Shown one piece after another: positions 13,968-54,543 of a stretch of 57,874 bases of DNA (the first letter of the stretch is position 1; each line of letters opens with the position of its first letter). The notes beneath the pieces are model-generated. The model was not told the DNA's origin. It made no database searches and saw only the letters and a list, made by a program, of their open reading frames with translations. The DNA comes from Candidatus Peregrinibacteria bacterium (GTDB taxonomy: Bacteria; Patescibacteriota; Gracilibacteria; Peribacterales; Peribacteraceae). The translations under genes and the position numbers were made by a program. The DNA lies in the NCBI GenBank assembly GCA_043755535.1, contig JAYUSS010000044.1, forward strand, positions 1 to 57,874, written 5' to 3'.

Positions 13968-13991
13968 TCAGTTTTCCATTCGCGAAACATA

Positions 13992-14024: not shown

Positions 14025-14049
14025 TTTCGATCTTGTTGCATCTTCGTAA

Positions 14050-27995: not shown

Positions 27996-28034
27996 CCAAA
28001 CCAATCTCTATAGGCATGCCGAATTGGTGGAGCT

Positions 28035-28083
28035 GATACGGAGAAGTTGGAACCGGATTCTCGATACATTCGACAGCGGATGG
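28035..28083. repeat. direct repeat copy 1 flanking the yafQ-dinJ cassette
   Basis: TGGTGGAGCTGATACGGAGAAGTTGGAACCGGATTCTCGATACATTCGA. Confidence 0.85.
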
Positions 28084-28663: not shown

Positions 28664-28669
28664 GATCCC

Positions 28670-28698
28670 ATGATAGTTTAGTATGTACACATTGTCAA
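28670..28698 (-). promoter_or_regulatory. promoter TTGACA-N17-TATCAT, leaderless dinJ start
   Basis: The -10 ends 6 nt before ATG 28663; the spacer contains the palindrome TGTACA. Confidence 0.5.
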
Positions 28699-28711
28699 CA
28701 TAATGTGGAGA

Positions 28712-28770
28712 TGGTGGAGCTTATACGGAGAAGTTGGAACCGGATTTTGCAATACATCGAAATATCCAAA
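28712..28770. repeat. direct repeat copy 2 flanking the yafQ-dinJ cassette
   Basis: TGGTGGAGCTTATACGGAGAAGTTGGAACCGGATTTTGCAATACATCGA; roughly 88 percent identical to copy 1 by eye. Confidence 0.85.
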
Positions 28771-33244: not shown

Positions 33245-34390
33245 ATGCGTCGTTTGTCACTCATCACCGCTGCACTCGTCTTGCTCCCGCTTGCGGCGCA
33301 GGCAGAAACATTCACCACTGTGCGCGATATCGTGCTGCCGATTTCTATCACTATACCCAAGAATGTCACGGCACGAATCGACACAGAGACGATGCAGGGT
33401 GTGCCGGGGTTCCGCGTCATCAACAGTTCAGCGATCGCTGTCCCCGCGTACATTGTGAATGATCAAGAAGATATCCTCCCCTCGGCACAGATGGTAAATG
33501 CGCCGAACGCAGCTGATACCGTCCCTGCTACAACAGTCGACATGCTGCGCGATAACGACTTGAACTCAGCCTTCCAGCCTTCGTCGGAGCGCACATTTAC
33601 CTTCTTACTTCGCTATAGCACCGACGTCGCTCCTAAGCGTTTGGAGTACACGATGCTCTCGGGCTCCGTTGATTCTGTGCGTGTACGTATCGGTTCATCA
33701 TCTTCCACACTGAAGAATGCCTTTGTAGGAACCCCCCGTGGTAACAGCATCGATCTTTCGGGTGAACGTGCCCGGGTGGTAGAGATCACCTTTACGATGC
33801 ACGAAGGAGTTACGCGTATTGCATCGCTACGCCTTATGCAGCCGCGGTCCTACTTGGTCATGCGTGCTTTGCCACGCGAGAGTTACCGCCTGCTGTATGG
33901 AGCGGGGCAAGAAGTCGTTAACCCGTATGATCGTGAGCTCAACGAGTATCAGGCGATCGAGGCGACGCTTGGAAAACCACGTGCAATCGGAGCCTTGGAT
34001 GGTAGTGATCACGACGGAGTAGACGCAGATAACTGCGACATGTTCTGGAACCCCGCGCAGGAAGATATGGATAAAGATGGCGTAGGTGATGCGTGTGATA
34101 ATTGCGGTGCGTATGCAAACCCTCTCCAGGAAGACAAAGACAATGATGGAGAAGGTGATACCTGTGAAGACAACGATAATGATGGAGCGGTCAATGCAGT
34201 CGACAACTGCCCCGAGCTCTCTAACCGATATCAGGAGGATGAAGATCGTGACGGACAAGGAAACGTCTGCGACAACGTCGATAACCGCTTTACCGCGGGC
34301 AAGCCGTGGCTGCTGTGGGGCGCTCTCGTTGTTATTATCTTGATGCTGGGTGGAGCGGGGGCGATGGTGCTACGACGGACGCGGGAGTAA
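33245..34390 (+). CDS. secreted protein with thrombospondin type-3-like Ca-binding repeats and C-terminal TM anchor
   Basis: Signal peptide LVLLPLAAQA; DxDxDGxxDxxD units (DMDKDGVGDACDNC, DKDNDGEGDTCED, DEDRDGQGNVCDN); C-terminal LLWGALVVIILMLGGAGAMVL. Confidence 0.8.
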   Translation: MRRLSLITAALVLLPLAAQAETFTTVRDIVLPISITIPKNVTARIDTETMQGVPGFRVINSSAIAVPAYIVNDQEDILPSAQMVNAPNAADTVPATTVDMLRDNDLNSAFQPSSERTFTFLLRYSTDVAPKRLEYTMLSGSVDSVRVRIGSSSSTLKNAFVGTPRGNSIDLSGERARVVEITFTMHEGVTRIASLRLMQPRSYLVMRALPRESYRLLYGAGQEVVNPYDRELNEYQAIEATLGKPRAIGALDGSDHDGVDADNCDMFWNPAQEDMDKDGVGDACDNCGAYANPLQEDKDNDGEGDTCEDNDNDGAVNAVDNCPELSNRYQEDEDRDGQGNVCDNVDNRFTAGKPWLLWGALVVIILMLGGAGAMVLRRTRE

Positions 34391-34464
34391 TAGAATAATA
34401 GGAATGAGAATAATAGGACGCGCACGAGACGGTCCTATTATTCTAATACTCTCATTCCTAATCC
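34389..34464. repeat. word-repeat hairpin (GGAATAATAG words) between convergent genes
   Basis: AATAGAATAATAGGAATGAGAATAATAGGA-loop-TCCTATTATTCTAATACTCTCATTCCTAATCC. Confidence 0.8.
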
Positions 34465-35775
34465 CTAGGCCGCAATCGCCCCCTCCCCCGCCAACGGCTG
34501 ACCTTCGTCGGGAGTAATACTGCCTTCGCCCTGTTCGGATGCCGGGGCAGCTTCCGTCTCCATCACCAGTGTCTGCTTTTCCTCCTCAGAGCGCTCGGCA
34601 ACGATTTCGGAGACGACTGCTGAGTCATCACCTGCCTCAGGATTTTCCTCGATGATCACCGCCTCGACTTCTTCGCCGCGCATCTGCGCAAGCTTGGCCT
34701 TAAGCGCCGGGAGCTCTTCGTAGTTATACATATCAAGCTCAAATCCTGTGAGGTCGGTTGCCAGGCGGATATTCTGGCCTTTCTTACCGATCGCCATCGG
34801 GCGTTGTGCTTCTTCTACAAAGACGGCTGCGCGCTTTTTGATGCGGTGACCGGCTTCGTCGAAGTGCTCGTCGTTGTTCAAAATAATGACGGCTGAGATT
34901 GATGCAGGCTGCAGTGCAGTTGAAATCAGTTTGATCGCATCATCGCTCCACTCAAGCATGTCGACGCGCTCGCCGTTGATCTCTTCCATCACGGCTTGGA
35001 TGCGTACGCCCTTCTGTCCCACACAAGCGCCGATCGGGTCGATGCGTGCGTCTTTGCTGCGAACTGCAACCTTGCTGCGAAATCCCGCATCGCGAGCGAT
35101 GGCGACTACTTCCACATCGCCGTTGCGTACTTCGGGGATTTCAAGTTCCAAGAGTTTACGGACGAGGTTCGGGTGGGTGCGGGAGATTTTGAGCTGAGGG
35201 CCCTTTCCTGTGAGTTCTACTTTTTCCAAGTACACACGAATGCGCTTACCGGTGTAGTAGTGTTCGCCGGGGATCTGTTCTCTCCACGGGAGTGACACGG
35301 TCATCCCTTCGACTTCGAGCGTCACCCAGTTCGGGTCGGTCTTGGTGACGGTTGCAGTAAGCAGCTCATTCTCGCGGTCTTTGAACTTCTCGTACAAGCT
35401 CTGGCGCTCGGCCTCCTGCAGCTTCTGCAGAATCACCTGCTTGGCAGCTTGCGCGGCAATGCGTCCGTATTCGTCCGGCGTCACATCGATCGTGATTTCA
35501 TCACCGACTTCGATATCGCGCTGGATGCGCTTAGCATCGTTCAAGCTGATTTCGAAGTTCTCATTTTCAATCTCCTCTACAACTTCTTTCACCAGCAAGA
35601 TTTTTGGCATATCCAACCCTTCTTCCAGCTCCACGCGGATATCCATTTCTTTGTTGCCGTAATCTTTGCGATACGCGGTGGCGATCGCCTGTTTGACGGC
35701 TTCGATGACCTGGTCCGGTGAAACGTTCTTCTCGGAACAAATCTGGTTAATGGCGGCTATGAACGATGCTTTCAT
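34465..35775 (-). CDS. nusA: transcription termination/antitermination factor NusA
   Basis: N-terminal domain, S1 (VTATVTKTDPNWVTLEVEG) and two KH domains (GACVGQKGVRIQAV, AIGKKGQNIRLA). Confidence 0.95.
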   Translation of the reverse strand: MKASFIAAINQICSEKNVSPDQVIEAVKQAIATAYRKDYGNKEMDIRVELEEGLDMPKILLVKEVVEEIENENFEISLNDAKRIQRDIEVGDEITIDVTPDEYGRIAAQAAKQVILQKLQEAERQSLYEKFKDRENELLTATVTKTDPNWVTLEVEGMTVSLPWREQIPGEHYYTGKRIRVYLEKVELTGKGPQLKISRTHPNLVRKLLELEIPEVRNGDVEVVAIARDAGFRSKVAVRSKDARIDPIGACVGQKGVRIQAVMEEINGERVDMLEWSDDAIKLISTALQPASISAVIILNNDEHFDEAGHRIKKRAAVFVEEAQRPMAIGKKGQNIRLATDLTGFELDMYNYEELPALKAKLAQMRGEEVEAVIIEENPEAGDDSAVVSEIVAERSEEEKQTLVMETEAAPASEQGEGSITPDEGQPLAGEGAIAA

Positions 35776-35940: not shown

Positions 35941-36112
35941 GAATACGGGAATACTAGAATAATAGGGATTAGAATAATCGGAACGACGGGAATAATAGAG
36001 TAATAGGGACTAGAATAATCGGAACGACGGGAATAATAGAATAATAGGGATTAGAATAATGGGAACGATCGTTCGTCCTATTATTCTATTATTCTAATCC
36101 CTATTATTCCTC
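35941..36112. repeat. compound word-repeat element: three tandem 41-nt left arms plus one right arm
   Basis: Units at 35947-35987, 35988-36028 and 36029-36069 (GGGAATAATAGAATAATAGGGATTAGAATAATCGGAACGAC variants), then GTCCTATTATTCTATTATTCTAATCCCTATTATTCC. Confidence 0.85.
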
Positions 36113-38756: not shown

Positions 38757-38846
38757 GAGAGTAATAGAATACTGGAATAATAGAGTAATAGGACGGCGGA
38801 AGAACTCCTTTCCTATTATTCTAGTATTCTAATCCCTATTATTCCC
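38757..38846. repeat. word-repeat hairpin (GGAATAATAG words) in a divergent promoter region
   Basis: GTAATAGAATACTGGAATAATAGAGTAATAGGA-loop-TCCTATTATTCTAGTATTCTAATCCCTATTATTCC; each arm ends within about 10 nt of a start codon. Confidence 0.8.
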
Positions 38847-40691: not shown

Positions 40692-43499
40692 ATGGCTTTT
40701 CTTGATTCCCTCAATAAACTCCTCGGCGATCCCAATGAAAAAGAACTCAGAAAACTGCGTCCATACGTCAAATTGGTGCGGGATGCCGCTGCAAAGCCGG
40801 ACATTCGGGCTTTAACCAGGGAGGATCTACCCAAGAAAACCGAGGAATTGAAGGCCAAATTTACCGCCGGAGCCACTCTGGAAGAGCTTTTGCCCGAGGC
40901 GTTTGCCGTGCATATCCGTGCGTGTGAACTGCTCCAGGGCGAGAAAGCGACCATCGGACGCCAGGAATTCGTGTGGAATATGATTCCGTTTGATGTGCAG
41001 ATTATTGGTGGAGTAGCGCTCCACCGCGGCTCCATTGCCGAAATGCGCACCGGTGAAGGAAAGACGCTTGTCTGTACGCTTCCCATTTACCTCAATGCTC
41101 TTGCCGGGAAAGGTGTCCACGTCGTCACCGTCAACGACTACCTCGCCAAGCGCGATGCGCTCTGGATGGGGGTCCTCTACAGAGCGCTCGGCTTAACCGT
41201 CGGTGTGATTGTGCATGGCGTCAATAACAACGACAGGCGCGATGCATACAGCTGTGACATCACCTATGGCACCAACAACGAATATGGGTTTGATTACCTG
41301 CGCGACAACATGGTGACGAGCAAAAAGCAGCAGGTGCAGCGCGGCCTTAACTACGCGATCGTCGATGAAGTGGACTCCATTCTTGTCGACGAAGCCAGGA
41401 CGCCGCTCATCATCAGCCAGCCAGCGGAGGAGTCGACGACCAAGTACATGCAGTACGCGATGCTGGTGAAAAATTTGCAAGAAAACACGCATTACAACAA
41501 AGACGAAAAGCAGAAGACGGCGGTACTTACCGACGAAGGTATCAAGAAAATGGAGGAGCTACTCGGTGTTGAAAATATCTACACCGAGAAAGGATTCGAA
41601 GAAGTACACCACATCGAACAGGCTCTGCGCGCCCATGCGATGTATCAGCGCGATGTCGATTACGTGGTATCGAATGATGGGCAGATTGTGATCGTGGATG
41701 AATTCACCGGGCGCTTAATGCCGGGCCGTCGCTACGGGCACGGGCTGCACCAGGCAATTGAGGCTAAAGAGAATGTGGAGGTGCAGCGGGAATCTAAAAC
41801 CCTCGCAACCATCACGTTTCAGAACTACTTCCGTCTCTATAAAAAACTTGCGGGTATGACCGGTACGGCTAAGACCGAAGAAGAAGAATTCGAATCGATC
41901 TATAAACTCCGCACCATTGTGATCCCCACGCACAGGCCGATGATTCGCGACGACCAATCCGATGCCATTTACCGCACGGTGTCATCCAAGTTCAAAGCCG
42001 TCGCACAGTTTGCCCGGGAGCGACATGCCAAAGGGCAGCCGGTGCTGATCGGTACGACGTCGATCGAAAAATCAGAGATTCTCGGCATGCTGCTCGAAAA
42101 AGAAGGCGTCCCGCACAACGTGCTCAATGCTAAGCAGCACGAACAAGAGGCAGATATTATCGCCAATGCAGGCCAAAAAGGAGCAGTGACGATTGCCACC
42201 AACATGGCCGGTCGCGGAACCGACATCAAGCTTGGCGAAGGGATGGCCGACCTCGGCGGCCTTTGCATTCTTGGGACGGAGCGTCACGAAAGTCGCCGTA
42301 TCGATAACCAGCTGCGTGGACGAAGCGGACGCCAGGGTGACCCGGGTGAAACACAGTTCTTTGTCTCGATGGAAGACGACCTGATGCGACTCTTTGGGGG
42401 AGACAGGCTCAAGTCGATGATGGAGCGCTTGAATGTGCCCGAAGATGTGCCGCTCCAAAACGGCATGGTTTCGCGCAGCATCGAAGGTGCCCAGAAGCGC
42501 GTGGAAGGACATCACTTCGACATGCGAAAACACGTCTTGCAGTACGACGATGTGATGAACAAGCACAGGGATATTATTTATAAGAGGCGGCAGAAGATCC
42601 TCGATAAACTGGAGGAGGGATCGGACTTAGGGATTGGGACTTCGGACTTAGGAAACGAGACTACCACCCTTCATGCAGATATTCTGGAAGCCATCCGCCG
42701 CGACGGTCGCGACATTGTCGTCACGCATGCGACGGGCATTGATAGCGACGAATGGAATTACAAGGAGATGAACGAAACTCTTGGGGCTCTGCACCCGAAG
42801 TTGCGCGAAGTGCTCAGTGAAGAAGTGCTACGTTCCAAAGACACCGTCGATGATCTGGTCGCATTTGTCTGTGACACATTGGTGGAATTCTACGAAGCGA
42901 AGTGCGCCTCACTCGATCCCAAACTAAGTATCCAGGCCGAGCGCGTCGTCACACTGCGTTCGATCGACACACATTGGATGGATCATATCGACGAGATGTC
43001 GCATTTGCGTGAGCAAGTTGCATTCGCAGGCTATGCCCAGCGCGACCCGGTGATTGAATACCAGGACAGAGCCTTCCAAAAGTTCCGCCAACTCCTCAAA
43101 AACATCGATTCGGTGATTGTCCGTACCGTGCTCCAGATCGACTTCGCACAATTCGCTCCAAGGCAAGTACTAGAGCAAGCAGAGGAAGGGCTCCAGAATT
43201 TGCAGACCAACGAAGCGCAGATTTCTGGGGAGTTGGAACAGACAGGCGTGAATGCGCGCGGCATGAATTCCGGTTCAGCCCTACAGCAAGCGATGAAACG
43301 GCAGTCCGAAGGTGACCTTTTGCTCAACCCGCTTGCAGCACGCACGCCGGCAACGGCACATATGGTTCCTCGCCCACCACTTCCACAGCAGCAAAAATCC
43401 ATGCAGAAGGTTGGACGGAATGATCCGTGTCCATGCGGAGCGAAGAAAGAGGATGGATCATCGGTAAAGTATAAAAACTGCCATGGCAAAAATGCTTAA
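40692..43499 (+). CDS. secA: preprotein translocase ATPase SecA
   Basis: MRTGEGKTLV Walker A, DEVDSILVDEARTPLIIS, TNMAGRGTDIKLG, C-terminal zinc tail CPCGAKKEDGSSVKYKNCHG. Confidence 0.97.
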   Translation: MAFLDSLNKLLGDPNEKELRKLRPYVKLVRDAAAKPDIRALTREDLPKKTEELKAKFTAGATLEELLPEAFAVHIRACELLQGEKATIGRQEFVWNMIPFDVQIIGGVALHRGSIAEMRTGEGKTLVCTLPIYLNALAGKGVHVVTVNDYLAKRDALWMGVLYRALGLTVGVIVHGVNNNDRRDAYSCDITYGTNNEYGFDYLRDNMVTSKKQQVQRGLNYAIVDEVDSILVDEARTPLIISQPAEESTTKYMQYAMLVKNLQENTHYNKDEKQKTAVLTDEGIKKMEELLGVENIYTEKGFEEVHHIEQALRAHAMYQRDVDYVVSNDGQIVIVDEFTGRLMPGRRYGHGLHQAIEAKENVEVQRESKTLATITFQNYFRLYKKLAGMTGTAKTEEEEFESIYKLRTIVIPTHRPMIRDDQSDAIYRTVSSKFKAVAQFARERHAKGQPVLIGTTSIEKSEILGMLLEKEGVPHNVLNAKQHEQEADIIANAGQKGAVTIATNMAGRGTDIKLGEGMADLGGLCILGTERHESRRIDNQLRGRSGRQGDPGETQFFVSMEDDLMRLFGGDRLKSMMERLNVPEDVPLQNGMVSRSIEGAQKRVEGHHFDMRKHVLQYDDVMNKHRDIIYKRRQKILDKLEEGSDLGIGTSDLGNETTTLHADILEAIRRDGRDIVVTHATGIDSDEWNYKEMNETLGALHPKLREVLSEEVLRSKDTVDDLVAFVCDTLVEFYEAKCASLDPKLSIQAERVVTLRSIDTHWMDHIDEMSHLREQVAFAGYAQRDPVIEYQDRAFQKFRQLLKNIDSVIVRTVLQIDFAQFAPRQVLEQAEEGLQNLQTNEAQISGELEQTGVNARGMNSGSALQQAMKRQSEGDLLLNPLAARTPATAHMVPRPPLPQQQKSMQKVGRNDPCPCGAKKEDGSSVKYKNCHGKNA

Positions 43500-43594: not shown

Positions 43595-44596
43595 TCACAC
43601 TTTCACATACCGTGTCCCCCGTCCCTGTCCCATACGCTTCACTTTGCGCAGTATCACGAGACGTGCAAGTGCTTGGCGTACTGTTCCAAGGGCGATACCG
43701 GTTGCATTCACGATTTTACCGGGAGCCGCTTCATCGACGCTTGAGAGATATTTCCACACGTCGTATTGCTTCGGAGAAAGAGTGTCTTCCACGTGCTCTT
43801 CTTCGAGATACGAGAGTGCCCTTGTCGCTTGTTCCCCTACAACCGCCAAAAAGAAATTCAGCCATGGTGCAATCGTACCGTGACCGGTTTTCAATGTTTC
43901 TTGCGATGTGCGGAGGGCAAAATAATATTCATCCTTCCTGCGTTCCACGATCTGCTCGTGCGAGACATACTGGACAAACTGGTAACCGGAACGGAGGAGG
44001 AGAAGGTTGGTCAGGACACGGGAAAGGCGTCCGTTGCCGTCTTCAAACGGGTGAATTTTCAAAAACTCCACAATGAAATTGGCGATGATGAGGAGTTGGT
44101 GAAAGCGTTTTTTCTCGAATGCATCGCTTGTCCATTCCGTAAGTTCCTGCATCTCTTTTCCGGCGAGATATGCCGGTGTCGTCTTGTAGCCTCCGCGATG
44201 TGTCTCGTCTTTGGTTGAATATTTGAGAAGCTGATGGTGGAGAGACAGAATCACACTCTCTCGAAGAGGCAATGTCCAGAAACTGTCGAATACATTCTGC
44301 AGCGTTTCAAGATATCCCTGTACCTCCTGCGTATCACGATCGGCAAATTTTGACAGGGAAAGACCATGCATGATTTTCTCCACTTGTGCATCGGTGAGTG
44401 TGGAACCCTCAATGCGAGTCGAAGCGCCGGCAGAGGTGATGATGGTCGACGTGCGGAGGTTGGTAACGGACTGAGGAGTCATGCGCAGGCCGGATTTGAA
44501 TTCGCCACGAATACCATCGATTTCAGTTAAAAGGGCTACGATATGTGGATCGATGCTATGGATACGCAGATCGAATTTTCGGAGGATGTCGTCCAT
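43595..44596 (-). CDS. fic: Fic-family protein with C-terminal winged helix
   Basis: HPFEDGNGRLSRVLTNLLL Fic motif and an N-terminal STRIEG inhibitory motif ((S/T)xxxE(G/N)). Confidence 0.9.
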   Translation of the reverse strand: MDDILRKFDLRIHSIDPHIVALLTEIDGIRGEFKSGLRMTPQSVTNLRTSTIITSAGASTRIEGSTLTDAQVEKIMHGLSLSKFADRDTQEVQGYLETLQNVFDSFWTLPLRESVILSLHHQLLKYSTKDETHRGGYKTTPAYLAGKEMQELTEWTSDAFEKKRFHQLLIIANFIVEFLKIHPFEDGNGRLSRVLTNLLLLRSGYQFVQYVSHEQIVERRKDEYYFALRTSQETLKTGHGTIAPWLNFFLAVVGEQATRALSYLEEEHVEDTLSPKQYDVWKYLSSVDEAAPGKIVNATGIALGTVRQALARLVILRKVKRMGQGRGTRYVKV

Positions 44597-44678: not shown

Positions 44679-44727
44679 CCACAAGAAACACATGCTTCGC
44701 CGACGCCAGTAAGCTATTCTTCACACT
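44679..44727 (+). repeat. holB 5'-module decoy, copy A (left-truncated)
   Basis: CCACAAGAAACACATGCTTCGCCGACGCCAGTAAGCTATTCTTCACACT is nearly identical to 46619-46666. Confidence 0.85.
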
Positions 44728-46014
44728 ATGATCACCTCCCGCATCCTCACTATCGTCGCATTCCTCTTAAGTGCAACCCCCGCCTACGCCGCCACGAACG
44801 ATACGCTTACTTGTACGTTGGAAGCAAAACTTTGTCCTGACGGCGTCACGTATGTCATGCGCCTAAAACCTGATTGTGAGTTTTCAAAATGCCCGACTCA
44901 TGCGTGTATTCCGTACCAATGCAAAGACGGGACGCAGGTTTCCCGTTGTACGGCAGATGGTGTCACAATCAATTATTTTGCCGCCCCTTGTTTGACACAT
45001 GGAGGAGAGACTGATGCGGTTCCATTTTCGGACGTCTCTTTCGATCATCCCAATGCGGCTGCCATTGCCTATCTGAAAGATCAGGATCTTGTTTCGGGCT
45101 ACCCCGACGGGACATTCAAAGCGGACCAGCCGATTAACCGAGCGGAGTTCACAAAGATCATCATGAACGGATACAACGGATTGGATGTGGTGCCGAAGCA
45201 GTGTGGGAGCACAAACGGGATGTATCTTCCTTTCAGTGATGTGCATCAAGGTGACTGGTTCGCGTTCCGCGTTTGTCTGGCTGTGGAGGCATCCATCGTC
45301 CAAGGATATCCTGATGGGACGTTCCGTCCATCCGCGAATATCAATTTTGTGGAGGCGGCAAAAATCATAGCTCACTCTTTCAAGCTGCCGTTTGCCCACA
45401 CGGATATATGGTTTGAGGGCTCTGTCCGTGCACTGGCCGACAGCAATGCCATCCCCACTTCCATCGCCCGCTTCGACCAGCCCATTACCCGCGGGGAAAT
45501 GGCGGAGATGATCTATAGACTAAAGGCAGGCATGACGGACCTTCCTTCGAAGACGTATGAGCAGTTATCACAACCTCCCACGGTTTTTGATAACTTCAGC
45601 CAGTGGGGCAGTTGGTCGGAAAACGGATACTTTTTCCGGGTTCCCAAGAATTGGAATAATGCGCGCGACAATAAGGGTCGGACGATCTTTGTGGATGGGA
45701 GAGGTGTAGTCCGCGCCATGCTTACTTGTCCTATTCCACAGGCCGGATACGAAGCATGGGATTTTCAGGAGTCACATCGAATGTTCAGTGAGCACGGACA
45801 GCAATACGGCGCGACGTTGTGGTTAGGTCACCCGCGCGATCCCATAGATGGTCTGGAGGATTTCAATCTGGTATTCATGCACCGCAACACGTTTGATCAC
45901 TGGTATGACGAGGGTGATGAACAATATTCCTGCGAGTTGACCTCGGGTGCAGGTGAGCTGGACGATGATATCTGGATGGCTATCTATCGTTCAGTAGAGG
46001 TATTGTCCGAGTAA
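44728..46014 (+). CDS. SLH-domain surface protein 1 (Cys-rich N-domain, SLH repeats, C-terminal domain)
   Basis: Signal peptide ILTIVAFLLSATPAYA; SLH units FSDVSFDHPNAAAIAYLKDQDLVSGYPDGTFKADQPINRAEFTKII and FSDVHQGDWF...VQGYPDGTFRPSANINFVEAAKII. Confidence 0.85.
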   Translation: MITSRILTIVAFLLSATPAYAATNDTLTCTLEAKLCPDGVTYVMRLKPDCEFSKCPTHACIPYQCKDGTQVSRCTADGVTINYFAAPCLTHGGETDAVPFSDVSFDHPNAAAIAYLKDQDLVSGYPDGTFKADQPINRAEFTKIIMNGYNGLDVVPKQCGSTNGMYLPFSDVHQGDWFAFRVCLAVEASIVQGYPDGTFRPSANINFVEAAKIIAHSFKLPFAHTDIWFEGSVRALADSNAIPTSIARFDQPITRGEMAEMIYRLKAGMTDLPSKTYEQLSQPPTVFDNFSQWGSWSENGYFFRVPKNWNNARDNKGRTIFVDGRGVVRAMLTCPIPQAGYEAWDFQESHRMFSEHGQQYGATLWLGHPRDPIDGLEDFNLVFMHRNTFDHWYDEGDEQYSCELTSGAGELDDDIWMAIYRSVEVLSE

Positions 46015-46032
46015 TCATTTTCCTTTGCTATT

Positions 46033-46521
46033 ATGACCATTTCCAATTCCATTAGGCGCGTTATTCTATGTTTGCGCACGTATCAGATCGCTCTTCCACT
46101 TTCGCAGATTCCTCCTTTAGTATTTTTATTGGGGATTAGCCAAGCATATGCAGGATCGATAATGCCCATATTATACAGAATGTGGGGATCACTCCTTTAT
46201 GTTTTTCTGCTTTTGTTGATTGGGATTTTTTTAATTCAACTCATAATTTATGGCTTCAAAAAAGATAGGAAATGGGCTTGGGGTGCAGCACTAATTTATT
46301 TTATGTATTCGATCAGTTCTGGAATTCACGCACTCTATACAATAGAAGATGAATTTTTAATCATTGATTCTTTTGGGTTCCTCATTCCGATAGCTGTGAT
46401 CTCAATTATTATTGGGATCATCGGAATATACATATTGATTCAAAAGGACGTACGTACTGAATTTGCCATAGATACCGCACTTGCAGAATTTGTCCAAAAG
46501 AGTCGCGGGAGCAGAAAATAA
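46033..46521 (+). CDS. small integral membrane protein (4 TM), AT-rich
   Basis: Hydrophobic helices throughout; no recognised family. Confidence 0.55.
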   Translation: MTISNSIRRVILCLRTYQIALPLSQIPPLVFLLGISQAYAGSIMPILYRMWGSLLYVFLLLLIGIFLIQLIIYGFKKDRKWAWGAALIYFMYSISSGIHALYTIEDEFLIIDSFGFLIPIAVISIIIGIIGIYILIQKDVRTEFAIDTALAEFVQKSRGSRK

Positions 46522-46580
46522 TGTACTTCAGTGACCATACTTCCTATACCGGTTTCAGGAGAGACGACTATTAGGGGGTG

Positions 46581-46666
46581 TATACTCTCTCCCCATGCTC
46601 CCCTCCGCCATCCTCGGCCACAAGAAACAGCTGCTTCGCCGACGCCAGTAAGCTATTCTTCACACT
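46581..46666 (+). repeat. holB 5'-module decoy, copy B
   Basis: TATACT-N8-ATG CTC CCC TCC GCC ATC CTC GGC CAC AAG AAA CAG CTG CTT...TAA (MLPSAILGHKKQLLRRRQ). Confidence 0.85.
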
Positions 46667-47749
46667 ATGATCACCCCCCGCATCCTCGCAATCGCCGCAT
46701 TCCTCCTGATCGCAACCCCCGCCCACGCCGCCTTCAGCGATGTCCCATCCAACCATCCTAATGCCGAAGCCATCGCTTATGTGCAGGCGAAAGGAATAGT
46801 CTCCGGGTATGGAGACGGAAGTTTCAGACCAGATCAAAAGATTAACCGTGCAGAATTTACGAAGATCATTGTGGCAAGTTATGTCTCAGACGAGGAAATA
46901 TACGACTGTCCGTTACATGGAGATACGGCCAGTCTATTCTCCGATTTAGAGGAGAGGGCATGGTACTTGGCTCCACTTTGTGTCGCGCATTTAAAGGGCG
47001 TGATTGCAGGCTATCCTGACGGCACATTCCGTCCTTCTGCAAATATCAATTTTGTGGAGGCAGCAAAAATCATCGTTCACTCTTTCGATATCGCAACCGA
47101 TGCGGGGCATACTGCCCCCTCCGATATTTGGTTTGTGCCCTATGTGATCGATTTGAATGTATATAATGCAATCCCCACATCTATTACCCGCTTCGACCAA
47201 TCCATCACCCGCGGCGAAATGGCGGAGATGATTTGGCGGTTGAAGGCAGGCATCACGAATAAGCCGACTCAGACGTATGAATCACTAGCAGGGGAAAAAA
47301 GTGACGGTTGGAAAGCATTCAATTCGCAGTATTTTACCTTGTCATTTAATGTCCCCGCCGGGTTCGAGGTTACCGACAATCCGGATGCTATCGCGGTTTC
47401 AAAAGGTCCTCTGCAATCGTATGACATCGGTGGCGGCAGTGCCTTTATGACAATTGTACGATTCGATGAACGCAACACCCGGGATAATGCGATCGCCCTT
47501 ACTCGGAAGCTTTTGAAAAATCAAAAAGAATCCACGATCACTGTCGACGGTTCTTCATTCTTTATGATCGAAGGCGATGATTATGGCAGATACGAAGGCG
47601 ATAGCGCCGGAAGAATCATGAAAATTTTCTTCCCGAAGTCCGTTCTCGAAGTTCAGGAGCGACCAGGAAATCAAACGCAAAGCTTTGATGTGATGGTGAC
47701 GGCGAAGAATATCATTGCAACGATGAAGTTTGCTTCTACGACAAAATAA
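46667..47749 (+). CDS. SLH-domain surface protein 2
   Basis: Signal peptide ILAIAAFLLIATPAHA; FSDVPSNHPNAEAIAYVQAKGIVSGYGDGSFRPDQKINRAEFTKII plus two more SLH units. Confidence 0.85.
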   Translation: MITPRILAIAAFLLIATPAHAAFSDVPSNHPNAEAIAYVQAKGIVSGYGDGSFRPDQKINRAEFTKIIVASYVSDEEIYDCPLHGDTASLFSDLEERAWYLAPLCVAHLKGVIAGYPDGTFRPSANINFVEAAKIIVHSFDIATDAGHTAPSDIWFVPYVIDLNVYNAIPTSITRFDQSITRGEMAEMIWRLKAGITNKPTQTYESLAGEKSDGWKAFNSQYFTLSFNVPAGFEVTDNPDAIAVSKGPLQSYDIGGGSAFMTIVRFDERNTRDNAIALTRKLLKNQKESTITVDGSSFFMIEGDDYGRYEGDSAGRIMKIFFPKSVLEVQERPGNQTQSFDVMVTAKNIIATMKFASTTK

Positions 47750-47775
47750 TAAATCATTTCTTTCTCTCTTCAATC

Positions 47776-48834
47776 ATGCGCCTCCATCTCCCCCTCACTA
47801 TCGCCGCATTCCTTCTAACCGCAACACCCGCTTACGCCTCATTCAGTGATGTTTCAGCAACGCATCCAAACTACGACGCCATCATTCACATGCAGAAACA
47901 GGGCATCGTGTCCGGTTATCCAGATGAAACATATCGACCGAATACGATAATAAATCGGGCGGAGTTCACAAAAATCATCATCGGATCAAGTTTTAACGCA
48001 AGCGATTTGGATAGGTGTAGTTTGGGGAATATCTATAGTTTTGTGGATATAGATTTCACGGCTTGGTATGCGCGTTATCTTTGCGTAGCTGTGCATCATA
48101 GAATGGTATCTGGATATCTTGACCATACATTTCAACCAAATGCCCCTATTAATTTTGCAGAAGCGGCGAAGATCATTGCTGTAGATGGCTACGTTGTGGG
48201 TGATGTCGCGGTTCCCAACGATCAAGGTGGGCCGTGGTATGAACCATATGTGCGCTATTTGGAATTAAACAATGCTATTCCCCTTTCCATCACCCGCTTC
48301 GACCAACTCATCACCCGCGGCGAAATGGCGGAGATGATTTATAGACTCTATAATAAAATGAATGATCTGCCGTCACAGACATATGAGGGGCTGCAGACAT
48401 CTGGAGAGACACTGTCCGTTACACTCTATTTCGGTGACAGAGAAGTCATAGAGGAAAGTGATTGTGGAGCGACGAAGCCAGTAAAGCGCACGATTGCGAA
48501 GACGCCTTCAGTGGCTGATGCAACTCTGCGTCTTCTTTTCCAGGGCGCTACCCCGCAGGAGAGGGCACAAGGATACAGCTCGGATTTTGATTGGGACTCG
48601 GACGGTATGGGCGACCCGCTTGAACCACTGCTTTCCTATTACAGAGGAGTAACGGTCGTGAACGGCATAGCCACGGTGAAATTCACCGGCGGTGCCATGG
48701 CGTATTTGAATAATACTTCTTGCATGCAGGAAGCGGTTAAAACGCCCATCTTCGATACACTGATGCAATTTCCGTCCATCAAAAGCATCCAGTTTTCGGT
48801 AGATGGGGAAATCATCACCGAATGGGACGCGTGA
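47776..48834 (+). CDS. SLH-domain surface protein 3 with C-terminal GerMN-like domain
   Basis: FSDVSATHPNYDAIIHMQKQGIVSGYPDETYRPNTIINRAEFTKII; C-terminus VVNGIATVKFTGG...TLMQFPSIKSIQFSVDGEI. Confidence 0.85.
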   Translation: MRLHLPLTIAAFLLTATPAYASFSDVSATHPNYDAIIHMQKQGIVSGYPDETYRPNTIINRAEFTKIIIGSSFNASDLDRCSLGNIYSFVDIDFTAWYARYLCVAVHHRMVSGYLDHTFQPNAPINFAEAAKIIAVDGYVVGDVAVPNDQGGPWYEPYVRYLELNNAIPLSITRFDQLITRGEMAEMIYRLYNKMNDLPSQTYEGLQTSGETLSVTLYFGDREVIEESDCGATKPVKRTIAKTPSVADATLRLLFQGATPQERAQGYSSDFDWDSDGMGDPLEPLLSYYRGVTVVNGIATVKFTGGAMAYLNNTSCMQEAVKTPIFDTLMQFPSIKSIQFSVDGEIITEWDA

Positions 48835-48838
48835 GGGG

Positions 48839-48915
48839 TATACTGTCTCTCCATGCCCCCCATCCTCGGTCACGAAAAGCAGCCCCAGCACTGAGATTTG
48901 CAGCAGATCGTACAG
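48839..48915 (+). repeat. holB 5'-module decoy, copy C
   Basis: TATACT-N8-ATG CCC CCC ATC CTC GGT CAC GAA AAG CAG...TGA (MPPILGHEKQPQH), followed by GAGATTTGCAGCAGATCGTACAG, which is shared with copy D. Confidence 0.8.
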
Positions 48916-48955
48916 TACGTTATACTTACTTTCGTACTTTCTTATTTTTATACAT

Positions 48956-49207
48956 ATGACACGCAAGATCGCCAAAAGCACCGAGCGGGGTCAAATTACG
49001 CTGCCGAAGGAGTGGAGAGACAATTTCCCTACCAACACGTTTATCGTGGAGATGCGCGATGACAGGCTGATTGTTCTTCCATTGAATGTCGACAAAGCGG
49101 ATGACGAAGAAATTCTGTTCGATGCCGATCGGGATAATAATGGAAAAGGTGTCAGTGCAGAGGACATGATCGCCATGATTCGCAAAATCAACAATGAACA
49201 AGGTTGA
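48956..49207 (+). CDS. AbrB/MazE/SpoVT-family antitoxin
   Basis: KIAKSTERGQITLPKEWRDNFPTNTFIVEMRDDRLIVLP swapped-hairpin motif; overlaps the toxin gene by 14 nt. Confidence 0.8.
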   Translation: MTRKIAKSTERGQITLPKEWRDNFPTNTFIVEMRDDRLIVLPLNVDKADDEEILFDADRDNNGKGVSAEDMIAMIRKINNEQG

Positions 49208-49445
49208 AAAATTTCTCAGGTCCATTTCCAGAAAAGATAGAGATGCAATTCTATTGCTGATTGATCTGCTGGAACGGGATCCCGCCAGTGTGCCGGGCAT
49301 CGTGGCACTCACTGGCATGCAAGGGTTCTATCGCGTGCGTCTGGGGTTATACAGGATTATCTTTTTCAGGGATCCGAAGACAAAGAAAGTCGAAACGAAG
49401 CGCATCGGCCGCAGAAGCGAAAAGACCTATAAAGGTCTTCGATAA
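49194..49445 (+). CDS. RelE/ParE-family toxin
   Basis: LTGMQGFYRVRLGLYRIIFFRDPKTKKVETKRIGRRSEKTY is typical of RelE/ParE. Confidence 0.8.
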   Translation: MNKVEKFLRSISRKDRDAILLLIDLLERDPASVPGIVALTGMQGFYRVRLGLYRIIFFRDPKTKKVETKRIGRRSEKTYKGLR

Positions 49446-49460
49446 GGGATCGAGGAAGAT

Positions 49461-49545
49461 CTGTACTTCCCCTCCGTGGCCCCCGCCCCCGCCATCCTCG
49501 GCCATAAGAAACAGCTATGCCATAGAGATTGTGTCAGATCGTAGA
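49461..49545 (+). repeat. holB 5'-module decoy, copy D
   Basis: TGTACT-N8-GTG GCC CCC GCC CCC GCC ATC CTC GGC CAT AAG AAA CAG CTA... (VAPAPAILGHKKQLCHRDCVRS). Confidence 0.8.
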
Positions 49546-49557
49546 GAGCGTTGTACT

Positions 49558-49644
49558 ATGACACGCAGGATCGCCAAAAGCACCGAGCGGGGGCAAATTT
49601 CACTGCCAAAGAAGTGGCGGGATCACTTCCCGTGCACAGCCTAA
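49558..49644 (+). pseudogene. truncated duplicate of the AbrB-type antitoxin gene (28 codons)
   Basis: MTRRIAKSTERGQISLPKKWRDHFPCTA-stop; close DNA match to 48956-49035. Confidence 0.7.
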
Positions 49645-49744
49645 AATGAGTATTTCTTATGCATTTCAGATTTGAATTTGCGGTTCTAAAATTGTTCTAA
49701 AATAGAATAAAATGGTATAATAATACCGATTCTTTTCCCAACCT

Positions 49745-51655
49745 ATGCCAGAGCCACTTAACCGAGAAGCAGCAGCCGAAGTTGCAGAGCATGCAGAACA
49801 AAAACTTGCAGGCGGACAGCATAAGGTTACTGCTGAAGCCCGTTTTGCTGTCAGTACTCAATTAAGTGCAGAAAGAAATCCGGAACGAAGAAACATTCTC
49901 CTTGCTACACTTTCAGCTTCAGGACAAAAGCTGAATACTCTTGCGGCAGGACTGACGCCCGACGAAATGGAAGAGCTGAAAGAGTTAACAAGACAGGAAT
50001 ATCTCGCAATGGAATCTGCGGTGAGCACACTTACCCGGCTCGATGCGGCGTTGATGAAACACTTTGACTCAAAGGATGCTAAAGAACTCCAGGATCTTGC
50101 GCGGCACACAATGGGTCTCTATCTCAATACGCATCAATACCACAACGCCGTCCATGCACTCAGCATGACACGCGAAGCCCTGCACTTGGCCGAAATTGCC
50201 GGCATTCATGATGAACAGAGTTTGAAAACACTCGTGATCCAAGGCCTCTACCATGACGCGGGAAACGGGGAACAACCGACTAAGCCGACAACAAAAGATG
50301 CGGATGAAACGCAGGCAGTCGCTGTCTTCGTGAAAGATCTGAAGGAAGTTGAACGGCGCATACGAGCAGAAGAAGACTTGGGAGAACTGTCCGTTCTTGC
50401 AAAACTGACAAGCGTGAACATCCATGGGAAGGATTTCGATCAAAAAACGGTCATAGCAGCATGTATCGCGGCGACCGTATTCCGCGATCGTTTCGCACCC
50501 ACCGAAACCCTTGCACTGCAACAGTATGTCGGCGGCATTCTCGAACATGTGCATAGTGCCCCAAATTACACATTCTTACAGATTCGCCACTTGGAAGAGA
50601 TGACGGAATTGATGGGCAGCGGCCTGGCGTGGATTGCACGCGGCGCCGACGTTGTCGGATCGACCTTCGATATGTCCGTATTGCAAAATAACATCCTGAA
50701 CCGTGTGGAAGATGTAAGACGCGGAGTTGGTGATGAAGTGGGTCCTGCTGGGTACCATGCAGGATTCATCGGATTCGTTGGCGCAAAATTTTTCGCAGGC
50801 CCGGCCAATCCGGCTGTAGCAGCAGCAAGAGGCGGGTCTGTACTCTTCCTGCCTGAAGGGGAAGGCGACGCCGCTTCAGTGATCGCCTATGGCAAGGTTC
50901 AGATGGATGAAGAAACTCAAAGATATGAGACGCTTATGAAAGAGCACGGCTCGTTGCTGACGGGTCTCTACGTCTTAATCGGCGAAGCACATGCAAGGGG
51001 AGAAAATTTTCTCACGCTTCCGGTTGCGGAAATCTATGCACGTATTCAAGAGCTTGCAGCAAGTCCTGATCGTGTAAAACGTGCCGGGTTGATTTTGAAA
51101 AAAGAAAAAATCGACTCGCTCGACATCAATCTTGAAAACTACCCACTCCTCCAAGAGTCTCGCAATGCGCATTGTACCATTTCTGCGATGACACCTGGAT
51201 TGGTGAACCGCCTCTTCGCACCAAACGCGGCGCAAACGGCAGAACAGGCTTGGATGTACGACCGTCTTGCGAAAATCGAACAGTGTACAAATGGCCGTGA
51301 GCAACCGATTTTGGTGAGCATGCTGGAATTGGCTAACCTTCATGCCGGCACACTGAAACACGAATCGTTCAAAAACGGGGAGAGCATTATCGCAAAAGAC
51401 AGCCAGTCGGGGCGTGTACTCGTGATACTGGAAGGCACCGTCACTATCAACACAGGCGATCACACATTCGCGCGGGGACCGGGGGCAGTGATCGGTGAGA
51501 TATCGGCACTGACCAATAAACCGGCAAACGCAGATGTCATTGCAGAATCGGATGTGGTAGCCGCTTCTCTGCCGGCTGAACTGCTGTGTGGCGAGTATAA
51601 TACGGAAGACCTGCGAAGGCATATATTGGAACTGATTAAAACTAGGAAGGGATAA
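49745..51655 (+). CDS. HD-superfamily phosphohydrolase-like protein fused to a C-terminal cyclic-nucleotide-binding domain
   Basis: YHNAVHALSM...GLYHDAGN (H...HD). C-terminus FKNGESIIAKDSQSGRVLVILEGTV...GPGAVIGEISALTNKPANADVIAES is a cNMP-binding beta-roll. TGGTATAAT promoter at 49709. Confidence 0.72.
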   Translation: MPEPLNREAAAEVAEHAEQKLAGGQHKVTAEARFAVSTQLSAERNPERRNILLATLSASGQKLNTLAAGLTPDEMEELKELTRQEYLAMESAVSTLTRLDAALMKHFDSKDAKELQDLARHTMGLYLNTHQYHNAVHALSMTREALHLAEIAGIHDEQSLKTLVIQGLYHDAGNGEQPTKPTTKDADETQAVAVFVKDLKEVERRIRAEEDLGELSVLAKLTSVNIHGKDFDQKTVIAACIAATVFRDRFAPTETLALQQYVGGILEHVHSAPNYTFLQIRHLEEMTELMGSGLAWIARGADVVGSTFDMSVLQNNILNRVEDVRRGVGDEVGPAGYHAGFIGFVGAKFFAGPANPAVAAARGGSVLFLPEGEGDAASVIAYGKVQMDEETQRYETLMKEHGSLLTGLYVLIGEAHARGENFLTLPVAEIYARIQELAASPDRVKRAGLILKKEKIDSLDINLENYPLLQESRNAHCTISAMTPGLVNRLFAPNAAQTAEQAWMYDRLAKIEQCTNGREQPILVSMLELANLHAGTLKHESFKNGESIIAKDSQSGRVLVILEGTVTINTGDHTFARGPGAVIGEISALTNKPANADVIAESDVVAASLPAELLCGEYNTEDLRRHILELIKTRKG

Positions 51656-52046
51656 GGTGCGTACTGCCCGCTTTAAAAGGAGCCGCCTTTGATATACCTC
51701 ATCTTTAACTCTCAAACCCGCATCACAAAAGAGGGCGGTGTTCACACCAGTGGTAAAGTGCAGATCGTCGAATCGAAGAATGGAAAGGCTCAGCAGCTTG
51801 CGACGACGCAAGTTGATGAATCCCAAGGCAAACCGGGTCTACTTCTGCAACAGGCAGCTCGATCAAAACGAGCAGCCCGGGAACAATTCGAAGATCCGCA
51901 GTCTCACGATCGAGTCTGCCAAAATTCACGGGTGATCGTTCTGAAGAAGTAACTCCATGGATAGGTGAAATACGTGATGTCTCTCGTCGGGCCAGCAGTA
52001 CTCCTGCTAGCCCGATTTTTTGTGGTATGCGCTATACTCCCCCTCC

Positions 52047-53009
52047 ATGGCGAGCGCCCCCCAAATCATCGGCCACAAAAAGCAGCTGCTCCAATTGGCG
52101 CAGGATTTAGAGAGCGGCAATCTGTCGCATGCGTACTTGTTCACCGGGCCTGCACATATCGGTAAAACTGCCGTTGCACGCTGGTTCGCTAGGCAAATTC
52201 TGTGTGGTGATGCCCCCATCGAAACGGCAGACCTCACCGCGACGCAAATCGACCGGCTCATTCACCCGGATTTCTTGATGCTCGATCAACTCTGGATGGA
52301 AGAAAAAATGGAAGACTGGGACATCATCGCAAAATCGTCAAATATTCCGCAGCAGCACCGCAGCAAGAAGCCCGCGATGAAAACGGATACCATCGCCATC
52401 GATGACGTCCGGGAAATTCAACAGAGGCTCTACGAGACGGGCGATCTTGCCCACCGCGTCTGTCTCATTCGTGGCATCGAACGCATGCAGGATGCGGCAG
52501 CAAATGCGTTCTTAAAGATTTTAGAAGAGCCGCCACCCGGGCGCATCTTCGTACTCACTGCCGATAATCCTTCCACAGTTCTTTCGACCATCTTATCGCG
52601 CTCCAGAGTACTTCGGTTCGAGCGGACCGGTGACCGCGATATATTGCAGATGCTTTCTGATATGGACAGCCACGACGCATCATTTATTGCACACGTTGCA
52701 GAAGGCGCCCCGGGGTTTGCCAAGCGCCTGCAGGTTGACCCGGATATGCTGCGTGCTGAACGCCTCATGCACACACAAGCGATCGCATTCTGGGAAGCGA
52801 AGGTGCTTCATGAAAAACTCTCGTATCTTAAGCCGCTTGGGGAACGTGGTGGGGAATCCGACAGGTTTTTGTACCACTTGGCACTTGCCCTACGTGCAAA
52901 ACCGAATGCTGTGCACGGCCAGGAGAGGGCACTACAAAAACTTGTTTCATCCCTCGATACCAATGCCCAAAGAGGGTTGCAGGTGCAGGATTTTGCGATG
53001 ACCATATAA
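52047..53009 (+). CDS. holB: DNA polymerase III delta' subunit
   Basis: HAYLFTGPAHIGKTAVARWFARQILC, AANAFLKILEEPP, TILSRSRVLRF. Start ATG 52047 lies 8 nt after TATACT (leaderless). Confidence 0.88.
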   Translation: MASAPQIIGHKKQLLQLAQDLESGNLSHAYLFTGPAHIGKTAVARWFARQILCGDAPIETADLTATQIDRLIHPDFLMLDQLWMEEKMEDWDIIAKSSNIPQQHRSKKPAMKTDTIAIDDVREIQQRLYETGDLAHRVCLIRGIERMQDAAANAFLKILEEPPPGRIFVLTADNPSTVLSTILSRSRVLRFERTGDRDILQMLSDMDSHDASFIAHVAEGAPGFAKRLQVDPDMLRAERLMHTQAIAFWEAKVLHEKLSYLKPLGERGGESDRFLYHLALALRAKPNAVHGQERALQKLVSSLDTNAQRGLQVQDFAMTI

Positions 53010-53071
53010 AGATCCAAGGTCCAAATTTCAAGATCCAAACGTTTGGACACTTGGAATTTGGATCTTGGAAT
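53010..53071. repeat. word-repeat hairpin (GATCCAAG words) between convergent holB and murA
   Basis: AAGATCCAAGGTCCAAATTTCAAGATCCAAAC/GTTTGGACACTTGGAATTTGGATCTTGGAATT. Confidence 0.8.
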
Positions 53072-54446: not shown

Positions 54447-54543
54447 AAGATCCAAGATCCAAAAAACAAGATCCAAAACGGGTAATAATTGAATGCACGT
54501 AACGTCAGACTTTTGGATCTTGGAATTTGGACCTTGGATCTTT
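54447..54543. repeat. word-repeat hairpin (GATCCAAG words) in a divergent intergenic region
   Basis: AAGATCCAAGATCCAAAAAACAAGATCCAAAAC-loop-CTTTTGGATCTTGGAATTTGGACCTTGGATCTTT. Confidence 0.8.

Follow-up and report, generated by a model that had tools for sequence, protein, structure and literature searches.

Decayed copies of the holB gene start between accessory cassettes in the secA-holB interval of a Candidatus Peregrinibacteria bacterium

The interval between secA and holB was analysed in a stretch of 57,874 nucleotides (nt) from a Candidatus Peregrinibacteria bacterium (assembly GCA_043755535.1, contig JAYUSS010000044.1, forward strand), referred to here as the window. The holB gene encodes the delta' subunit of DNA polymerase III and has 431 homologues, of which those with names belong to Peribacteraceae or Peregrinibacteria. 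Four partial copies of the holB promoter and first codons, designated A to D, lie upstream of holB on the same strand, and the features of the interval are summarized in Table 1. The four copies and the live start were found where the initial annotation had placed them, within 1 nt. At 8.5 kb the interval is the largest in a comparison set of about 40 related Peribacteraceae holB loci, in which all the relatives are metagenome contigs. The copies are read here as non-coding scars of recombination at the holB 5' end, a reading in which belief and doubt are about evenly balanced.

Table 1. Features of the secA-holB interval and its borders, with positions in the window
Feature	Position	Strand	Basis or details
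secA, conserved left anchor	40692..43499	+	935-aa open reading frame (ORF)
Fic-domain gene	43595..44596	-	Pfam Fic 4.7e-14
Copy A, left-truncated stub	44679..44727	+	Begins inside core (GACCACAAGAAACA); no promoter or start codon
SLH1, secreted S-layer-homology protein with Cys-rich N-terminal region	44728..46014	+	Pfam SLH 8.5e-24
162-aa hydrophobic protein	46033..46521	+	ORF; no Pfam match
Copy B	46581..46651	+	TATACT 46581-46586, ATG 46595, stop 46649-46651, peptide MLPSAILGHKKQLLRRRQ
SLH2	46667..47749	+	Pfam SLH 9.2e-26
SLH3, with C-terminal Germane domain	47776..48834	+	Pfam SLH and Germane
Copy C	48839..48894	+	TATACT 48839-48844, ATG 48853, stop 48892-48894, peptide MPPILGHEKQPQH
abrB-relE promoter/operator, conserved	48916..48950	+	DNA comparison with L004 and L121
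AbrB/MazE-fold antitoxin	48956-49207	+	MazE_antitoxin 24.4 bits, below curated cut-off 24.7
RelE/Gp49-like toxin	49194-49445	+	Gp49 17.8 bits, below curated cut-off 23.9
Copy D, decayed stub	49462..49544	+	TGTACT 49462-49467, GTG 49476, stop ~49542-49544
abrB' fragment, 25 codons, second copy of cassette 5' end	49558..49632	+	
636-aa protein with C-terminal cyclic-nucleotide-binding domain	49745..51655	+	Pfam cNMP_binding 1.3e-11
87-aa ORF (orf87)	51689..51952	+	No Pfam match; called on contig L001 too
Predicted intrinsic terminator	51986..52022	+	Hairpin -20.1 kcal/mol, z = -4.7, then T6
Live holB -10 box, leaderless ATG and first 13 codons (repeated module)	52033..52087	+	TATACT 52033-52038, ATG 52047, start peptide MASAPQIIGHKKQLL
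holB (DNA polymerase III delta')	52047..53009	+	Pfam DNA_pol3_delta2 2.1e-35

The module common to the copies consists of TATACT, eight variable nucleotides (N8), ATG, two to five variable codons and the residues I-[IL]-G-H-K-K-Q. The same residues stand in the N-terminal consensus of about 120 holB homologues, M-x(3-5)-I-[IL]-G-H-K-K-Q-L-L-Q-L, and the live start, whose ATG lies 8 nt 3' of its -10 box, bears lineage-specific MASAP codons. The stub peptides fit this consensus with the GHKKQ codons kept, and a repeat finder grouped the four copies into one family. At up to 3 mismatches the 23-nt core ATCCTCGGCCACAAGAAACAGCT was found only at copies B, D and holB in the 57.9 kb, and it was absent from 100 shuffles. 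The core of copy C has 5 mismatches to that of copy B, and the core of copy B has a single mismatch to the live holB start of the related locus L004. The likeness thus covers holB coding sequence and not just the -10 box, as had been proposed, and the repeated coding core is holB-specific. In the whole window TATACT-N8-ATG occurs on the plus strand only at B, C and holB and on the minus strand once, at the murA start; the promoter part is therefore a semi-generic leaderless architecture.

The four copies vary in length, in the frame past the core, in start codon and in promoter integrity. Copy B is an 18-codon holB-like ORF that ends 15 nt 5' of SLH2, and copy C has 13 codons, stands at the junction of stub and toxin-antitoxin (TA) cassette and ends 61 nt before the next gene. 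The stubs had been thought to retain a leaderless-type promoter. This held for B and C, in which the -10 box, the N8 spacing and the ATG are intact and which may still drive transcription of SLH2/SLH3 and of the TA cassette. It did not hold for D, with TGTACT and GTG, or for A, with neither element, and to judge from sequence these two are degenerate and without functional promoter features. The stubs were not among the calls of a generic scan for sigma-70 promoters and terminators, a result of low weight for leaderless promoters that have only a -10 box.

The junctions of the copies with the neighbouring DNA were compared among the window and the related loci. The left flank of copy C, made up of the end of the SLH/Germane gene and GGGGTATACTG, is the sequence found immediately 5' of holB in L114; the ancestral sequence upstream of holB, as L114 has it, consists of the 3' end of SLH3 with GGGGTATACT. 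Because of this match, copy C looks like a former live holB start that was displaced when the TA cassette and a new start entered after codon 13. The same TA cassette lies in L004 between a 21-nt holB stub and the live start. This stub matches its own holB start at 20 of 21 positions (E = 7e-5), carries no promoter and is not an ORF. The stub-to-abrB sequences are homologous in the window, L004 and L121, and the junction is therefore either old or travels with the cassette. The L121 and L125 contigs end left of the TA cassette, so that their left junctions lie outside the contigs.

Copies C and D have the stub-to-abrB junction and 75 nt of abrB in common, at 84-85% identity. Copies A and B have one junction of their own, and the sequence downstream of it is 88% identical over 124 nt (46618-46741) and 91% over 100 nt. 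These flanks are in keeping with the proposed duplication of A/B and of C/D. Since A and B have one common junction and C, D and L004 another, there are two independent junction types, and the earlier count of four insertions for four decoys falls. In C, D and L004 the last shared letters are CAGC, and in A and B they are CAGCTGCT; these end points are 4-8 nt apart, and beyond the core the sequence is unrelated between the two types.

Copy D lies immediately 3' of the relE stop codon, a position taken up by the live holB promoter in L121 and L125; these two loci have neither copy D nor the cassette with the cyclic-nucleotide-binding (cNMP) gene. From the -10 box to the start, copy D has 3 mismatches in 18 to the live start and 6-7 to B or C. 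Its core has 1-2 mismatches in 23 to B and the L004 allele and 4 to the live start, and its number of variable codons resembles that of the live start. Because it is in this way a mosaic, part live start and part older stub, and is followed by a second stub-to-abrB junction, copy D fits unequal crossover and not a fresh integration. Between the window and L121, in which relE is followed by holB with no cNMP cassette, the live holB starts are 94.5% identical. The live start is therefore resident and was not supplied by the last cassette. The claim that incoming DNA regenerates the holB start is accordingly consistent with copy C, with its L114 flank, and with L004, but not with the cNMP cassette, where the start is that of L121. 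The sequence 6-12 nt 5' of the live -10 box was also tried as a marker of ancestry and was dropped, as only 4-6 nt were shared.

Among the searches for related loci, the metagenome search with a clade-specific holB sub-alignment yielded 29 loci. In the profile search of genome contigs, for which the full holB alignment was used, matches to the generic LKILEEPP motif predominated, and L005 was the one useful locus. In about 25 of the loci secA, 63-84% identical, lies directly 5' of holB, and in about 20 more distant Peribacteria loci the spacing between the two genes is 20-250 nt. In P0003 and P0004, which are 70%-identical relatives, secA abuts holB, as follows from an over-extended holB ORF that reads the secA C-terminus in another frame. 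The comparison shows an ancestral order of secA followed directly by holB.

The gap was found to hold varied cargo in close relatives. It contains a 173-aa ORF in L117, a 318-aa ORF on the minus strand and a 150-aa ORF in L002, and 216-aa and 148-aa ORFs in the partly covered gap of L116; these small ORFs are mutually unrelated and belong to no Pfam family. One SLH gene is present in L092, an SLH and an SLH/Germane gene in L114, and a 2'-5' ligase gene (minus strand), an SLH gene and AbrB/RelE in L004. AbrB/RelE stands immediately 5' of holB in L121 and L125, and the order in the P0143 contigs and L126 is secA, AbrB/RelE, SLH. With such varied cargo and with empty sites in relatives, there is therefore no fixed arrangement. 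The secA-holB interval is a hypervariable locus of cassette gain, a clear result though one with precedents, and the recurrent hotspot put forward in the initial annotation is confirmed. The short ORFs were not seen as conserved stand-alone genes unrelated to holB, the similarity is not limited to the -10 box and the arrangement is not identical in all relatives. Stubs were seen among the compared loci in the window and L004 only. Most of the cargo in relatives lies upstream of the promoter and leaves no stub, and in L126 the TA cassette follows secA without one.

At positions 6240-6300 of L114, ATA stands where the leaderless ATG would be expected, between the GGGGTATACT box and the probable GTG of holB, and about 25 nt after this ATA are loosely similar to a holB start (TTCCTCAGTAC). 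Here a lineage that lacks the TA cassette may carry a very short, decayed stub.

Movement of the cassettes between lineages was evaluated from the identities of cargo and holB. The abrB-relE genes of the window are 91-92% identical in DNA to those of L125, while the holB genes are only 67% identical; L121 has the reverse pattern, with 81% for the TA genes and 87% for holB. The discordance with L125 is taken to show that cassettes are exchanged between divergent lineages and therefore move horizontally. Homologues of the cNMP gene that were examined lie in unrelated neighbourhoods in other Peregrinibacteria. This suggests that the gene was relocated into the secA-holB interval. A donor form of the cNMP cassette was sought among the same homologues, and no stubs were found beside them. 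The Fic gene located 3' of holB in L125 was considered as the same cassette as the Fic gene of the window and was rejected at 29% identity.

The gene content of the cassettes agreed by Pfam with the earlier description, except that the 636-aa protein had been described as an HD/cNMP protein and only the cNMP_binding domain, no HD domain, was detected in it. A promoter-like site of the Fic gene lies on the minus strand at 44662-44633, in a region that takes the place of the left part of copy A, and relatives have other minus-strand genes at the Fic position. The three SLH genes are paralogues, and SLH1 is 57% identical to the SLH gene of L004. Their signal-peptide DNA (44745-44790, 46684-46729 and 47793-47838) is 83-88% identical, but the mature proteins are only 50-55% identical, a pattern which suggests gene conversion or repeated replacement of the 5' end. 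The overlap between abrB and relE is 14 nt long. The homologues P0146 and P0148 carry the JGI name RelE, P0148 with PF05016. The 35-nt abrB-relE promoter is 97% identical to L004 (8956-8990) and 88% to L121 (28-69), with coding sequence at 72-81%; this fits an autoregulatory operator that moves with the cassette. The abrB' fragment is 84-85% identical in DNA to 48955-49029 (84% by tblastn). The terminator in front of holB is predicted to shield the holB promoter from the cargo. By Pfam, the locus showed no toxin-tip or immunity architecture.

An enzyme that could mobilise the cassettes was searched for. All ten ORFs between 43.6 and 53 kb were without a recombinase match in Pfam, and the statement that no recombinase gene lies between 43.6 and 52 kb is thereby upheld. 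No integrase was present in the gene calls or Pfam matches of six related gaps (L002, L004, L114, L117, L126/P0143 and the partly covered L116); the gaps of L092, L097, L106, L111 and L113 were assessed by length only and measure at most 1.5 kb. No tyrosine recombinase was detected by Pfam among about 50 ORFs of the window that were scanned, and no intI. The only recombinase found in the window is a 532-aa large serine recombinase (19858-21456, plus strand), 23 kb from the array, with the domains Resolvase, Recombinase and Zn_ribbon_recom. An inverted-repeat scan of 43.5-53.1 kb, in which no attC model was run, revealed no conserved imperfect palindromes at the cassette ends. A phage or plasmid bearing an attP site was sought with the degenerate core in viral contigs, which gave 3 matches, about the number expected by chance on a rough estimate; all three fall within a phage structural ORF that has no integrase in its vicinity. 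The holB-based scan of viral contigs gave no match, and no relevant report of holB as an integration site was found in the literature.

The 3' end of the serine recombinase gene overlaps a tRNA-Thr(TGT) gene (21409-21484, minus strand), and this overlap may be the edge of an integrated element. In L004, two resolvase/recombinase genes lie 3-8 kb 3' of holB.

A second TA cassette, which pairs a YafQ toxin (Pfam 8.8e-28) with an antitoxin ORF upstream, was found on the minus strand at 28104-28690. It is bracketed by direct repeats at 28016-28059 and 28703-28746, which are 44 nt long, 89% identical and extendable to about 58 nt, and which copy the region 5' of a DinG-like exonuclease/helicase gene (25683-28004). 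The architecture and the repeat length match those of the holB stubs, and the right edge CAGCTCCACCAATTCGG is loosely like the CAGCTGCTCCAATTGG of holB.

Taken together, the array is best explained by cassettes gained through events anchored in the conserved holB 5' segment, followed by recombination between the resulting repeats; it is for this joint explanation, scars included, that our confidence stands midway. The start state is the one observed, secA then holB transcribed from a -10 box 8 nt 5' of its leaderless ATG. SLH genes then came to sit 5' of holB, as is seen in L114 and L092. At least twice, foreign cargo with its own promoter and a holB 5' end would have been joined inside the resident codons 13-16. 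After each joining, the promoter and initial codons of the resident gene would stay behind as a stub on the left side of the incoming cargo, an outcome that is seen at the locus although the mechanism is conjectural. One such event would have given the stub-to-TA junction of copy C, also present in L004, and another the stub-to-SLH junction of A and B. The joining may have been homology-facilitated illegitimate recombination or the single-crossover (Campbell-type) integration of a circularised cassette, with the near-invariant ATCMTCGGCCACAARAARCAGCTGCT segment of about 25 nt as the anchor in either case. The direct repeats of about 55 nt would then have undergone unequal crossover, as the mosaic pattern suggests, duplicating stub and cassette 5' end and yielding the mosaic D with abrB' as well as A/B. 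The second TA copy would for the most part have been replaced by the cNMP gene, orf87 and the terminator.

This homology-anchored explanation is favoured because no recombinase was found in the gaps examined, the stubs are confined to the window and L004, and the other cargo is stubless. The direct repeats that bracket the second TA cassette were counted in its favour as well. Several observations weigh against it. Illegitimate joining would have to place two independent junctions within about 8 nt by coincidence; such closeness is expected of a site-specific recombinase. With an anchor of 25-55 nt, RecA-dependent recombination is at its lower limit, above all where the lineages are 67% identical. 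The same cassette beside very divergent holB genes points to a site-specific enzyme acting in trans, as do the target repeats of 44-58 nt at the second TA cassette. The similarity between the window and L125 stops at the relE stop codon and not, as a holB-anchored transfer predicts, inside holB. Few sites support the mosaic nature of copy D, with 3 versus 6-7 mismatches in 18 and 1 versus 4 in 23.

An alternative along the lines of the initial annotation is that the holB 5' end, with a core of about ATCMTCGGCCACAARAARCAGCT, is the attB site of small integrative cassettes that each bring a promoter and start, the site-specific recombinase being elsewhere or lost and successive integrations having built up an integrase-less, att-bounded tandem array similar to cis-mobilisable elements (CIMEs) or tycheposon remnants. 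The stubs are direct repeats with the 23-nt core and right breakpoints at most 8 nt apart, copy C and the L004 stub act like attL with resident flank, and a near-identical TA pair beside a 67%-identical holB implies targeted re-insertion. Homology directly right of the core in A/B and in C/D is as expected of tandem related elements, a second TA cassette with flanking repeats of 44-58 nt exists in the window, and serine recombinases are present at 19858-21456 and twice in L004. Islands specific for dusA likewise replace the 5' end of the target gene (PMC4482086). The explanation was nevertheless judged possible but doubtful, as neither the window gap nor the six related gaps with gene calls or Pfam contain an integrase, the live start has its orthologue in L121, where the last cassette is missing, and copy D is a mosaic. 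The TA cassette of L126 follows secA without a stub, and the cargo of the other relatives is stubless too. The core is absent elsewhere in the window, and the matches in viral contigs were at chance level only. The recombinases that are present are serine-type. Enzymes of this type cross over at about 2 bp, so that repeats of 55 nt are neither needed nor created. A related but unlikely proposal is that an unrecognised trans-acting system of Peribacteraceae inserts small self-promoted modules (TA, SLH) at the 5' regions of housekeeping genes with target duplications of about 55 nt. This signature is seen at two loci of the window, holB and the region 5' of the dinG-like gene at 28.0-28.75 kb, both with a CAGCT..CCAATT-like motif at the right-hand edge of the repeat.

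A purely local origin, in which the holB promoter underwent segmental or tandem duplication in situ and the copies were kept as ready leaderless promoters with no horizontal input, would account for the A/B and C/D units, which look like tandem duplicates, for the intact -10 box and ATG of B and C directly 5' of cargo and for the paralogy of the SLH genes. It is considered quite unlikely, given the horizontal exchange of the TA pair (92% against 67% for holB) and the location of the cNMP gene elsewhere in relatives. The abrB gene has its own highly conserved promoter and no need of copy C, functional promoter features are missing from A and D and a promoter from the L004 stub, and the core of copy B is already one mismatch from the L004 allele. 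Copy C in particular is not a product of tandem duplication, because abrB on its right is unrelated to SLH3 on its left. The stubs could also be functional, as leader peptides (upstream ORFs) or decoy binding sites that couple the cassettes to holB regulation; in its favour, B and C form intact leaderless mini-ORFs whose ends lie 15 and 61 nt from the following gene, and the GHKKQ codons are retained. This is highly improbable, as almost all relatives lack the stubs, the copies differ in length, post-core frame, start codon and promoter, the L004 copy is not an ORF and the post-core sequence is unrelated between the junction types.

Other sequence features were noted in and around the locus. 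In relatives, holB codons 13-16 form the palindrome CAGCTGC-T-GCAGCTG; the folding of codons 13-17 was no better than that of shuffled sequence, and the palindrome exists at the sequence level only. An exact 15-nt match GTGGTATGCGCTATA to the live holB promoter, spanning its upstream edge and -10 box, occurs on the minus strand at 1661-1675 (blastn-short E = 0.003), about 170 nt 5' of the prepilin peptidase gene and on the opposite strand. Downstream of holB, murA is flanked by 31-nt direct repeats (53009-53039 and 54447-54477, 87% identical) that are parts of palindromic GATCCAAA-type hairpins. Rearrangement extends to the downstream side of holB, because murA is reversed relative to holB in L114 and is replaced by a Fic gene in L125. 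A 41-nt tandem repeat in three copies is located at 35945-36068, and related TATTATTCTA-rich motifs occur at 34381-34467, 36076-36110 and 38811-38845, in intergenic regions between divergent genes. Similar low-complexity TATCCTCTATCC repeats lie 5' of holB in the distant relatives L099, L105 and L109.

The window also contains a type IV pilus cluster at 1841-14505, with genes for a prepilin peptidase, a PilB-like ATPase, a PilC-like platform protein and two N-methyl pseudopilins. The two pseudopilin genes carry a 76-nt paralogous repeat, and a response regulator and a sensor kinase are encoded nearby. Pili of this kind are linked with DNA uptake in bacteria of the candidate phyla radiation (CPR), and the cluster is a plausible DNA-uptake apparatus for the entry of cassettes.

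CPR bacteria have tiny genomes with few recognisable mobile elements, and the route by which they gain accessory genes is poorly understood. The present locus is a concrete case whose history can be reconstructed from comparative data. A conserved gene start of 25-55 nt beside secA appears to act as a portable recombination handle, by which surface-protein, TA and signalling cassettes would be gained, shuffled and duplicated, the essential replication gene retaining a working promoter. If a dedicated enzyme proved to be involved, this would be a new cassette system; if that enzyme were the trans-acting system outlined above, the system would be integron-like, without attC or IntI, in a CPR lineage. 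If there is no enzyme, the sequential-displacement logic of toxin loci would extend to the 5' end of a core gene. Stubs of the holB start and repeats of about 55 nt around TA cassettes may serve as markers of such hotspots in metagenome bins.

The locus was finally compared with known systems. SXT/R391 integrative and conjugative elements (ICEs), inserted in the 5' end of prfC, behave like the islands at dusA, and SXT supplies a promoter too. Islands and prophages at the dusA 5' end use DusA-specific tyrosine integrases (PMC4482086). The holB locus resembles the dusA and prfC islands in that insertion would take place in the first codons of a housekeeping gene, the incoming DNA would give the new 5' end and the old 5' remnant lies at the far side of the island, and unoccupied target sites were likewise found in relatives. 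A replacement 5' end is consistent for the TA cassette, as copy C keeps the L114 flank, but not for the cNMP cassette. The dusA/prfC islands have an integrase beside the att site and one fixed crossover core, whereas no integrase was found in the holB gaps examined, the units are 0.6-2.5 kb long, the last cassette brought no start and one stub is a mosaic. Of the dusA-like integrase model in the initial annotation, the hotspot and the displaced start survive in outline, the number of events and the account of the most recent cassette do not, and the integrase is unsupported.

The CIMEs of streptococcal ICEs are integrase-less remnants left by the tandem accretion of integrative elements. Tycheposon islands, with scattered partial tRNAs, also show tandem accretion (10.1101/2020.12.28.424599). 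The tycheposons and CIMEs share with the holB locus cargo separated by degenerate attachment copies, newcomers that push older units away and a clade-wide hotspot. Tycheposons, however, target the 3' end of tRNA genes and have intact tyrosine-recombinase elements in many genomes, and no intact element was seen at holB. Chromosomal integrons are similar in their small, mostly single-operon cassettes, TA pairs among them, which lie on one strand at a fixed point in variable order; at holB no IntI gene or attI site was identified, and the separators are copies of a gene start and not attC.

In the effector-immunity arrays of Vibrio cholerae's type VI secretion system (T6SS), sequential displacement through homology-facilitated illegitimate recombination was proposed (PMC5361080). 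A similar displacement in orphan toxin-immunity modules of Rhs and contact-dependent growth inhibition (CDI) systems is cited in that paper. As on the reading proposed for holB, a conserved segment serves as the anchor in T6SS and Rhs arrays; each module arrives with its own copy, displaced modules keep an anchor fragment, there is no dedicated recombinase and the repeats then recombine or duplicate. In accordance with this, copies A to D each precede a block of cargo, and the modules are foreign, with discordant TA and holB identities and cNMP homologues in other contexts. The T6SS and Rhs arrays are built at the 3' end of a toxin gene from toxin tips and immunity genes. At holB the anchoring segment belongs to an essential replication gene, of which it takes in the promoter and 5' end. 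Growth of the array is upstream, and its cargo is mixed (SLH surface proteins, one TA pair and a cNMP-binding protein). Displacement arrays and att-scar arrays are known; what is new is that a CPR bacterium has one at the 5' end of an essential gene.

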